From a virus (taxonomy: Duplodnaviria > Heunggongvirae > Uroviricota > Caudoviricetes), in the IMG/VR virus record IMGVR_UViG_2734482587_000013: a stretch of 34,061 bases of DNA, one strand, 5' to 3'. The position numbers and the translations under genes were made by a program. How positions within the stretch are numbered: the first letter of the stretch is position 1; each line of letters opens with the position of its first letter. The notes beneath the pieces are model-generated. The model searched no databases and was not told the origin of the DNA. It saw only the letters and a list, made by a program, of their open reading frames with translations. Positions 1-2,660 of this stretch are shown here, one piece after another.

Positions 1-573
1 ATGTTTTGCGAAGAAAAAGTAGCTCAAATGGCTGCATACCTACTTCTTAAGCGAGGTGGGCGCATGGCATATCTGAAATTGATGAAGCTGCTCTATCTGT
101 CTAACCGCAAGTCGATTTTGAAGCATGGCAGGATGATCGGCGAAGATAGCCTTTACTCTATGAAATTTGGTCCAGTCATGTCGAATACGCTGAACTTGAT
201 TCGTGGTAAGGCTGAAGGCATTGGTGACTACTGGTACAACTTGATAGAGACGAACGGGCATGATGTGTTGTTGCGTTCAGATCCGAGGGAAATGGATGCA
301 GACGAGGTCTTTGATGAGTTGAGCCGTGCAGATATCCGGATTTTAGATGAAATCTATTCTCTGTATGGGCATATGAACCGATTTGATCTCGCAAACATGA
401 CGCATTTAGAAAGCGTTTGTCCAGAGTGGCACAATCCTGGCAATTCTCGTAAGCCTATAGACCTGAAAGAAATGCTGATCAGTGAGGGTAAAAGCGAGGA
501 TGAGGCTAATCGTATAATTGGCAAAATGGAAGAATCTCAGAAACTTAAGGAATTTTCTTTGCAATTATCATGA
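1..573 (+). CDS. Panacea (DUF4065)-domain protein, SocA/GepA-like antitoxin-type; ATG is at window position 1 so the true 5' end may lie upstream
   Basis: 190-aa ORF. Segment YLKLMKLLYLSNR...GR..GEDSLYSMKFGPVMSNTLNLIRG resembles the DUF4065/Panacea core as I recall it. Stop overlaps the next ORF start (ATGA). Region is visibly AT-richer than the phage core. Confidence 0.55.
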   Translation: MFCEEKVAQMAAYLLLKRGGRMAYLKLMKLLYLSNRKSILKHGRMIGEDSLYSMKFGPVMSNTLNLIRGKAEGIGDYWYNLIETNGHDVLLRSDPREMDADEVFDELSRADIRILDEIYSLYGHMNRFDLANMTHLESVCPEWHNPGNSRKPIDLKEMLISEGKSEDEANRIIGKMEESQKLKEFSLQLS

Positions 574-989
574 CGGATTATCAGCCATACAGGAAAGGAA
601 CTGTGCTTGCCCCAACTGGGCCATGCAATCATCTTCATGTGATTTGTAATGATCCTGTTTATTACCCCGTTAACGATTGTTATTGTGTTTTAGTTGTTAA
701 TATTTCTAGTATCAAGGATGGTGTCCCCCACGATCCGTCTTGCGTCTTGAATTCTGGTGATCATCGCTTTATCAAGCATCCAAGTTATGTTGTTTACGCT
801 GAAGCTATAATTTGGCGAGTGGATAACATGGTTAGAAAGCAGCGATCGGGTGAGATTTCTGTTCATGATGATATGCCAGAAGCTACATTCAATAGAATTC
901 TGGACGGTTTTGATATATCTGATGAAGTTACGCCAAAGAACCTTAAATTTAAAAATAAATATTGCGTATCATCTATTGATGATGAGTAA
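570..989 (+). CDS. Hypothetical 139-aa protein, translationally coupled to the upstream Panacea-like gene; candidate toxin/effector partner
   Basis: ORF start ATG overlaps the upstream stop by 4 nt (ATGA); same strand; AT-rich codon usage. I recognise no family from the sequence. Confidence 0.45.
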   Translation: MTDYQPYRKGTVLAPTGPCNHLHVICNDPVYYPVNDCYCVLVVNISSIKDGVPHDPSCVLNSGDHRFIKHPSYVVYAEAIIWRVDNMVRKQRSGEISVHDDMPEATFNRILDGFDISDEVTPKNLKFKNKYCVSSIDDE

Positions 990-1028
990 ACAACAGGAAT
1001 TTTTTCGGTATAGCTTCTGGAGTTTTCT

Positions 1029-1202
1029 ATGAAAGATCAAAAAGCAACCAAGCCACAGGTTAAGTTCGACACAATGAAAGCATTCGCAGGTATGGGGGCT
1101 GCTGTTGAAGTTCTGATGAAGGCTGTTCCTAATGCGTTCACTCACGCTACTGTCTCTGGTAAAGAGCAGCAGGGTAAGCTTCGTCGTCGCAAAGCAGCAT
1201 GA
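1029..1202 (+). CDS. Hypothetical small protein (57 aa, basic C-terminus KLRRRKAA); below the ORF-track length cut-off
   Basis: GGAG about 7 nt upstream of ATG at 1029; open frame to TGA at 1200-1202; followed about 20 nt later by an intrinsic terminator. Coordinates counted by hand from the sequence. Confidence 0.35.
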   Translation: MKDQKATKPQVKFDTMKAFAGMGAAVEVLMKAVPNAFTHATVSGKEQQGKLRRRKAA

Positions 1203-1221
1203 TCATAGCTGGTGCTTTTTG

Positions 1222-1248
1222 AAAACCCGCCTTCAGGCGGGTTTTTTC
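1222..1248. terminator. Bidirectional rho-independent terminator between the left-edge + strand module and the minus-strand early operon
   Basis: AAAA-CCCGCC-TTCA-GGCGGG-TTTTTT: GC stem flanked by an A-run and a T-run, so it can terminate on either strand. Confidence 0.7.
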
Positions 1249-1249
1249 T

Positions 1250-1531
1250 TTAGTGATGTTCTTTGCCCTTCTGTTTGACTGTTCTGACCTGTTCCCACTC
1301 GATACGTCCTTCTTCTCGCCTTTTGTCTATGTATTCCGCAAGATCCTGAATATTGATGCAACGTTTTGCTTTTTGTGATGTGCCGATGCGATATGTTGGA
1401 ACGGGCAACTTACAAGCGTTTGCTTTTGCTTCTGCCGTGGCTGGACTCATACCAAAGTACTTTTGGCTAATTGCTGAGAGTTCAATGTTTGGGGTATTGA
1501 ATTCAGCCATCAGTAAAAACAAGGTGTTCAT
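1250..1531 (-). CDS. PrtN-family (pyocin-activator-like) small DNA-binding protein
   Basis: Minus ORF 1250-1558; start chosen at the internal ATG (1531) preceded by GGAGAAAAT. Sequence MAEFNTPNIELSAISQKYFGMSPATAEAKANACKLPVPTYRIG... resembles the PrtN family from memory. Confidence 0.45.
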   Translation of the reverse strand: MNTLFLLMAEFNTPNIELSAISQKYFGMSPATAEAKANACKLPVPTYRIGTSQKAKRCINIQDLAEYIDKRREEGRIEWEQVRTVKQKGKEHH

Positions 1532-1567: not shown

Positions 1568-2140
1568 TCATAATTCTGTGCTGGTGGCAGGAATTAATTT
1601 CTGCCAGATAGCGGAAACATATTTTGCCTGATGACGGGCATCAGCTATGGCGTTGTGCCGTTCGCCATCGAAAGGCATGTCCATTTTGGGGTCGAATCCG
1701 ATGGAACGCCCAAGTGTAACGATCGTGCGTACATCGTGGTCATTCCAGTACGCCCACGGGCAGATTTGTCCTGCTCGCTCATAAGCTCCACGTAAAATTA
1801 CGTTGTCGAAGGTGGCTCCGTTACCCCAGACTTTTAAATATTTCGTATTGTCTGCGTGCCGGTTAATGAAATGGTTTAGTTCTGAGAGAGCATCGCTGAT
1901 CGACAAAGTATCATCAATACAGATTGCAGCTCGCGCTTCAGGGCTTTGTTTCAACCACCACAGGATGGTATCGCCGTCAGGTGTAGCTCCTTGCTTCATA
2001 GCACTGTCTAGGCTGACAACCGCATAGAATTCTTGTCCGATGTCTCCGGTTTCTGGAGTGAAGAACACCGCGCCAATGGAAACGATCGGTGCATCCTTAT
2101 TTTTCCCCATCGTCTCAAGGTCGATCATTAAGTTGTTCAT
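1568..2140 (-). CDS. DnaQ-like (DEDD) 3'-5' exonuclease
   Basis: MNNLMIDLETMG (Exo I D-x-E motif) and HNAIADARHQA (Exo III H-x4-D motif) are present. Start at internal ATG 2140 preceded by GGAGG; ATGA overlap with the upstream gene. Confidence 0.7.
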   Translation of the reverse strand: MNNLMIDLETMGKNKDAPIVSIGAVFFTPETGDIGQEFYAVVSLDSAMKQGATPDGDTILWWLKQSPEARAAICIDDTLSISDALSELNHFINRHADNTKYLKVWGNGATFDNVILRGAYERAGQICPWAYWNDHDVRTIVTLGRSIGFDPKMDMPFDGERHNAIADARHQAKYVSAIWQKLIPATSTEL

Positions 2141-2658
2141 CACTTCACCTCCTGCGGCGGTTCTGGTAGAGGCATCCAATTGATTACATCGCATTTAGGG
2201 ATGCTGATATCATCACCAAGCCACCCTTGACCTTCAGACCAGCATTGCACGTAATACCCGTATTCTGTGTTCACTACGCACCACTGCGCGTCGTTCGGCA
2301 TTCGATCACTACAGCTTATCCAACTATCCGGAGTTCCCGGATAGTTGCCATTTACATCGAAGTTTGGCTCTGCGTCCTGAACCAGGAGGATGTAACCATT
2401 CTTGGCAGTATCAAGTTCTAACGCCTCGGTGACGGTGCCGAAATAGCGATTACCTAAATCAGCATCACAAGTGCTTACATCAATGGAAACCTCCATGCCT
2501 TCGATTAATTCTGGCAAGTTGTAAGTTTGGCTTACAGGTTCTGCTCCCAGCGATGCCAGTGCAATCCGTGCCAGTTCCATTTGTTCGCCACGGGTAAGCC
2601 CGTTATCAAGCGGATTTTTAATGAATAATTCGATACGTTCTTTGGTAATAGTGGTCAT
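2140..2658 (-). CDS. DUF551-domain prophage protein
   Basis: 172-aa ORF; Trp-rich C-terminus ...QCWSEGQGWLGDD...INWMPLPEPP typical of DUF551 as I recall it; part of the contiguous minus-strand operon. Confidence 0.5.
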   Translation of the reverse strand: MTTITKERIELFIKNPLDNGLTRGEQMELARIALASLGAEPVSQTYNLPELIEGMEVSIDVSTCDADLGNRYFGTVTEALELDTAKNGYILLVQDAEPNFDVNGNYPGTPDSWISCSDRMPNDAQWCVVNTEYGYYVQCWSEGQGWLGDDISIPKCDVINWMPLPEPPQEVK

Positions 2659-2660
2659 AG

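Follow-up and report, generated by a model that had tools for sequence, protein, structure and literature searches.

A putative PanA–PanT toxin–antitoxin pair at the attL-proximal edge of a dusA-integrated lambdoid Escherichia coli prophage

Three small genes lie at the left edge of a 34,061-nucleotide stretch of caudoviral DNA (IMG/VR record IMGVR_UViG_2734482587_000013; the whole stretch is hereafter called the window), and they raise the question of whether a toxin–antitoxin system is carried there and whether its toxin is a new one. A reading made from the sequence alone had claimed three ORFs on the + strand, and all three were found: ORF1 (panA; 1–573, 190 aa), ORF2 (panT; 570–989, 139 aa), and ORF3 (1029–1202, 57 aa), the last co-directional with panAT. 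As that reading also held, they converge on the early-left genes of the phage, all of which are on the − strand. The last gene of this operon encodes a PrtN-family excisionase (xis; 1250–1558), which matched Pfam PF11112 (E = 7.6e-23) and phrog_1300 (E = 2.6e-39), and its neighbors include a 3′-5′ exonuclease, DUF551, Ea22-like and other genes of a lambdoid early-left operon. The GC content of bases 1–1202 was 41.9% vs. 50.7% for the rest of the window, and only 5.7% of the 1200-bp segments elsewhere in the window had a GC content as low, so the description of the three genes as AT-richer than the phage core was borne out.

A GC-rich hairpin with an 11-bp stem and a 4-nt loop, found by a terminator scan and folded with RNAfold, occupies positions 1221–1246 between the + strand genes and the − strand excisionase gene. 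Its folding energies were −19.3 kcal/mol on the + strand and −18.1 kcal/mol on the − strand, while a long T-tract (TTTTTTCTTT) follows it on the + strand only, and the − strand carries 4 U. The hairpin is therefore clearly the terminator of the + strand module and a weaker terminator candidate for xis, so that the bidirectional terminator proposed earlier stands for the module side and only in part for the other, because the long T-tract is confined to the + strand.

The product of ORF1 was identified as a Panacea protein. It matched the Pfam SocA_Panacea profile PF13274 with E = 1.8e-18 and 67.9 bits (cutoff, 25.7), the domain extending over residues 27–137 and covering profile positions 1–109 of 113, in agreement with the Panacea/DUF4065 core recognized from the sequence. 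RefSeq names the protein "Panacea domain-containing protein" (WP_000458583.1), while the SocA equivalog model NF047745 (NCBIfam) gave 13.5 bits, below its cutoff of 190. An N-terminal accessory domain is absent from ORF1, and its last ∼50 residues form a charged tail after the conserved motif PEW-x-(D/N)P-x-x-S. As ORF1 starts at base 1, truncation by the window edge was considered, and it was rejected because the N-terminus aligns with those of 19 homologues, which have the same MF/Y-x-E-x-K-x-AQ start at the same position; judged by this alignment, ORF1 is a complete antitoxin gene. In the full prophage, a GAGG is found 8 nt upstream of its ATG.

The region upstream of the window was evaluated in E. 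coli APEC 102026, whose prophage (locus L001) is 99.9% identical to the window over bases 1–1300. There, about 470 bp of intergenic DNA separate panA from zur, and comparison with the free phage Lys8385Vzw located the att junction some 260 bp ahead of panA (attL, L001 7685–7755; attP, L002 5680–5740). At the far end of this ∼44-kb prophage, dinI is followed by the integrase gene, which runs directly into dusA (int-dusA, L036 12319–14542); the prophage is therefore a dusA-5′-end integrating element, a type that has been described before (Farrugia et al., 2015; PMC4482086). At attL, the 5′ end native to dusA (…RFSIAPML) is left with its promoter, pointing toward panA, and a surrogate dusA 5′ end carried by the phage next to int (MPEKTGVYWNSRFSIAPML…) restores dusA at attR. 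Thus, no upstream partner of ORF1, which had been thought possible, was encountered: attL and the displaced dusA 5′ end precede the pair in the lysogen, and a divergent integrase gene precedes it in the free phage. For the same reason, the view that ORF1 and ORF2 end a longer operon extending beyond the window was rejected. The phage part of the upstream region contains a weak sigma-70-like site, TTGACC-17-TAAACT, that matches the consensus at 9 of 12 positions, and sites of this quality were no commoner in the region than in shuffled sequence. Transcription of panAT toward the hairpin at 1221–1246 would start at a phage promoter in the ∼260-bp segment that separates attL from panA, or else reach the pair by read-through of transcripts begun at the displaced dusA promoter. 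The same prophage differs from the window elsewhere: a single ORF of 172 aa makes up the DUF551 gene of the window (2140–2660), while a shorter DUF551 CDS and a pseudogene fragment are annotated in the APEC prophage (L001 10140–10658), suggesting local variation or decay in the latter.

ORF2 overlaps ORF1 by an ATGA stop/start at 570–573 on the + strand, read directly from the sequence, and the same −4 overlap was repeated in 14 other loci, with a −1 overlap in two more. The ATGA coupling claimed for the two genes thus concerns a real and recurrent overlap, which indicates that panA and panT are translationally coupled. The RefSeq/PGAP annotation starts ORF2 at GTG603 instead, giving 128 aa (WP_014640052.1). 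Since the N-terminus of the family (MTxYxPYRKGT) aligns from ATG570 and the −4 overlap is conserved from that codon, the GTG603 start is probably too short, and the deposited start is then probably wrong in hundreds of genomes.

In searches of Pfam, NCBIfam and PADLOC, ORF2 had no match, consistent with the earlier remark that it belongs to no recognized family, and the curated-library scores of ORF2 and ORF3 (ICMT and DapC) were at noise level. The sole match of ORF2 in PHROGs was phrog_19071, a family without known function, and the 62 clusters returned by a word-indexed search were all unnamed. The family is large: an exhaustive profile search with ORF2 retrieved 2,703 representative clusters at E ≤ 1e-3, of which 929 remained at E ≤ 1e-10, the relatives among the matches listed being mostly stand-alone proteins of about 130 aa. 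Across the family, His21 is invariant, and Asp55, Cys58, Gly63, His65, Phe67, Ser72 and Tyr76 are each at least 90% conserved. As a separate observation, a 90%-identity clustering placed ORF1 (190 aa) and ORF2 (139 aa) in one cluster with 541 members of 53–232 aa, presumably a clustering artifact.

The PanA/PanT systems were defined, and their toxins clustered, by Kurata et al. (2022; PNAS, PMC8832971), and cluster T6 in that paper has "noNTD" PanAs, an A|T gene order, −4/−1 overlaps and no CDD match, while HHpred called its toxins "EndoA/PemK/MazF-family RNAses." The present pair is alike, with a stand-alone Panacea antitoxin, antitoxin-first order and a −4 overlap, and ORF2 resembles the T6 PanTs in length (about 130–140 aa), in having no CDD/Pfam match and in its MazF-like predicted structure. 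Two loci retrieved in this study connect ORF2 to the cluster. The T6 rows of Dataset S1 (PMC8832971) include "Yersiniaceae bacterium 2016Iso4" with the toxin WP_101821906.1 and an overlap of −1, and Pantoea septica LMG 5345 with an overlap of −4; both strains are among our loci (L007 and L008, respectively) with agreeing overlaps, and the L007 toxin was identified as WP_101821906.1 by exact-sequence look-up. ORF2 was 55% identical to this toxin (E = 4e-49) and 56% identical to that of P. septica. On these identities, ORF2 is assigned to PanT cluster T6, its link to the validated toxin of the cluster running through the published clustering and not through direct alignment. The exact E. coli accessions of the pair were absent from the supplement rows available. 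The T6 rows also show several Pasteurellales T6 toxins named "terminase" in RefSeq, probably a propagated misannotation of a small MazF-fold protein.

The validated T6 pair is that of Pseudomonas moraviensis (PanA, WP_083354365.1; PanT, WP_083201923.1). Its PanT was toxic in E. coli and neutralized by the cognate PanA, pulled down PanA, and specifically blocked 35S-Met incorporation (Kurata et al., 2022; PMC8832971). The termini of this toxin, taken from primers (MPGNIL… and …IRQNNF), matched no ORF2 homologue retrieved here, a second profile search included. The PanA N-termini are similar, MFCEEKVAQ in ORF1 and MIFSEQKVAQ in P. moraviensis, and the two pairs differ in setting: the P. moraviensis pair is flagged "NotPhage" in its Dataset S1 row (PMC8832971), while ORF1–ORF2 reside on a dusA-integrating lambdoid prophage of E. 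coli. Because ORF2 belongs to a described and validated family, already predicted to be MazF-like, the proposal that it is a possibly novel toxin was rejected.

The AlphaFold2 model of ORF2 (pLDDT 90, pTM 0.83) shows a beta-barrel followed by three helices, and the top matches in a Foldseek search of the PDB were all MazF. The predicted structure is thus an SH3-like beta-barrel toxin fold as in MazF, PemK and Kid, and we regard the modeled ORF2 fold as MazF/Kid/CcdB-like. At the sequence level, no homology to the MazEF or Kid-Kis (PemIK) toxins was detected: the Pfam PemK model PF02452 matched neither ORF2 nor the 57 family members scanned with it, MazF did not come up when PDB sequences were searched with a profile, and hhalign against MazF and Kid, whose sequences were entered by hand, gave a probability of 0.6%. 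In the non-significant local alignment with this MazF sequence, H21-L22-H23 stood opposite MazF H28-R29-P30, and S46/S47 opposite T52/T53. The catalytic pair of MazF is Arg/Thr (R29/T52 in E. coli MazF). The ORF2 family conserves a His/Asp/Cys/His set instead of this pair, so its chemistry could differ, and the conserved set within residues 21–76 resembles an active or metal site other than that of MazF. The ORF2 model also has two C-terminal helices more than the MazF/Kid toxins. The antitoxins differ as well, MazE and Kis being of AbrB/RHH type while ORF1 is a Panacea protein in which no DNA-binding domain was recognized, and the antitoxin-first order of panAT sets it apart from MazEF and Kid-Kis. 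RNA cleavage is the chemistry that we favor for ORF2, with less certainty than the toxin–antitoxin pairing because of the different catalytic residues.

To survey the pairing of the two genes, 32 genomic loci with ORF2 relatives from Entero-, Vibrio-, Methylococc- and Sutterella-type bacteria and Alphaproteobacteria were inspected, of which 30 were assessable, one of the others lying at a contig edge and one on a 277-nt contig. A PanA homologue was found directly upstream of the ORF2 homologue, on the same strand, in 30 of these 30 gamma-, beta- and alphaproteobacterial loci. The panA/panT overlap was mostly 4 nt across loci, whereas the flanking genes varied. Identities to the window proteins fell in parallel from a common 87%, PanA reaching about 29% and PanT about 30%; the two genes are therefore inherited together. 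Further, the pair was present in nine phage records, and it occupied unrelated genome positions in Klebsiella, Yersinia, Vibrio and P2-like Pseudomonas phages. These comparisons support panAT as a mobile accessory (moron-like) toxin–antitoxin cassette at the prophage edge. The sequence-only reading of a toxin–antitoxin moron with a novel toxin hence held for the cassette, on the Panacea domain and the 30/30 pairing, and failed for the novelty of the toxin, ORF2 falling in the known T6.

Whether ORF3 is part of this cassette was then evaluated from its distribution. ORF3 starts 40 nt downstream of ORF2, has a GGAG Shine-Dalgarno sequence 7 nt upstream and a basic C-terminal tail (GKLRRRKAA), and matched phrog_2741, a family with no known function (E = 5.6e-35). 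Its own Shine-Dalgarno, its direction and the terminator that it has in common with panAT would fit a system of three genes, with ORF3 serving the Panacea module as a functional third part, for example as its regulator or chaperone. However, among the PanAT loci ORF3 was confined to L001 and L002, those of the E. coli phages, and it was absent from the other 29, all of them non-E. coli, with no homologue in the Klebsiella, Yersinia and Pseudomonas phage copies of panAT. In phage mEp460, ORF3 adjoins the same excisionase without panAT, and gp23, a 177-aa hypothetical protein (L035 2271–2804), replaces panAT between attP and ORF3. Among E. coli records, 569 matched part of the region and only 205 of them carried the whole module. 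These distributions make a third component very improbable, and the earlier inclusion of ORF3 in the module is not upheld; ORF3 belongs to the xis-side phage backbone, where it might act as a small factor in recombination directionality or in regulation. ORF3 was 93–98% conserved wherever the excisionase type of the window occurred. Since gp23 fills the same place in mEp460, the position between att and ORF3 behaves as an accessory exchange point, and by this comparison it appears to be a cargo slot in dusA-integrating lambdoid prophages.

The domain of ORF1, the modeled fold and the family of ORF2, the conservation of the pairing and the mobility of the cassette are what this analysis shows, and we consider it highly probable that ORF1–ORF2 is a type II toxin–antitoxin pair, with PanT a MazF-fold translation inhibitor and PanA binding PanT directly. 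In this scheme, bases 1–989 would encode a PanA–PanT pair that a lambdoid prophage of E. coli, integrated in dusA, carries near attL as exchangeable cargo. The two proteins would be made from coupled genes through the ATGA overlap; PanT would arrest growth by shutting down protein synthesis, by analogy with the P. moraviensis relative, most likely by cleaving RNA; and PanA, a stand-alone Panacea domain with a C-terminal tail, would bind and neutralize it. Both the Panacea core and the C-terminal tail are known as modes of neutralization (Ernits et al., 2023). The founding Panacea/DUF4065 antitoxin belongs to SocAB, a type VI system of Caulobacter, and its SocA-like domain is common to ORF1, while the toxins differ, SocB being a clamp inhibitor and ORF2 having a modeled MazF fold. 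SocA acts as a ClpXP adaptor, whereas PanAs of the ORF1 type would, by analogy, bind the toxin directly. For the E. coli panAT, we infer the toxicity, the RNase chemistry, the neutralization interface and the promoter, as well as a biological role, for which the candidates are retention of the prophage, abortive infection and selfish maintenance.

Other explanations were weighed against this one. ORF2 may be a gyrase poison like CcdB, or some other effector that uses this SH3-like barrel without being a MazF-like ribonuclease, an alternative that we hold to be unlikely. Somewhat less likely still is that ORF1–ORF2 is a conserved two-gene module that is non-toxic in E. coli and has another function, for example in phage regulation, where a Panacea "sensor" would act with a partner that binds RNA or DNA. 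Such a module would accord with the sensory role proposed for Panacea (Ernits et al., 2023), with the location of panAT beside the xis/int recombination region, and with the finding that 8 of the 25 PanT candidates assayed in E. coli showed no toxicity there (Kurata et al., 2022; PMC8832971); against it, the P. moraviensis toxin of the same cluster T6 is toxic in E. coli and neutralized by its PanA, and the cassette travels on its own among phages and chromosomal sites that are unrelated. Autonomous movement is typical of toxin–antitoxin modules. A further explanation, also improbable, retains a toxin and changes its chemistry and control: T6 PanT would act by a non-MazF mechanism on the MazF scaffold, through a near-invariant His21/Asp55/Cys58/His65 center, and the cassette would be wired to the integration state as a sensor–effector. 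The dusA junction may offer such wiring, as the dusA promoter reads toward panAT in the lysogen, and the phage surrogate dusA 5′ end takes that place after excision. If true, the integration-wired panAT would be a sensor–effector for prophage retention or abortive infection.

PADLOC-DB v2 models gave zero matches at E ≤ 1 for ORF1, ORF2 and ORF3, and a literature search on Panacea modules in E. coli prophage defense returned nothing specific. What is new here is the E. coli prophage copy, the PanAT T6 family being known and tested in its Pseudomonas member, P. moraviensis; the value of the result is therefore mainly one of annotation, and it leaves the current understanding of these systems unchallenged. 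A "hypothetical protein" downstream of a Panacea gene, which at least 205 complete genomes of E. coli and several temperate phages encode, can now be named as a predicted PanT (T6, MazF-fold) toxin with a corrected start, and the E. coli prophage panAT would be a convenient native-host model in which PanAT systems may be tested for phage defense.
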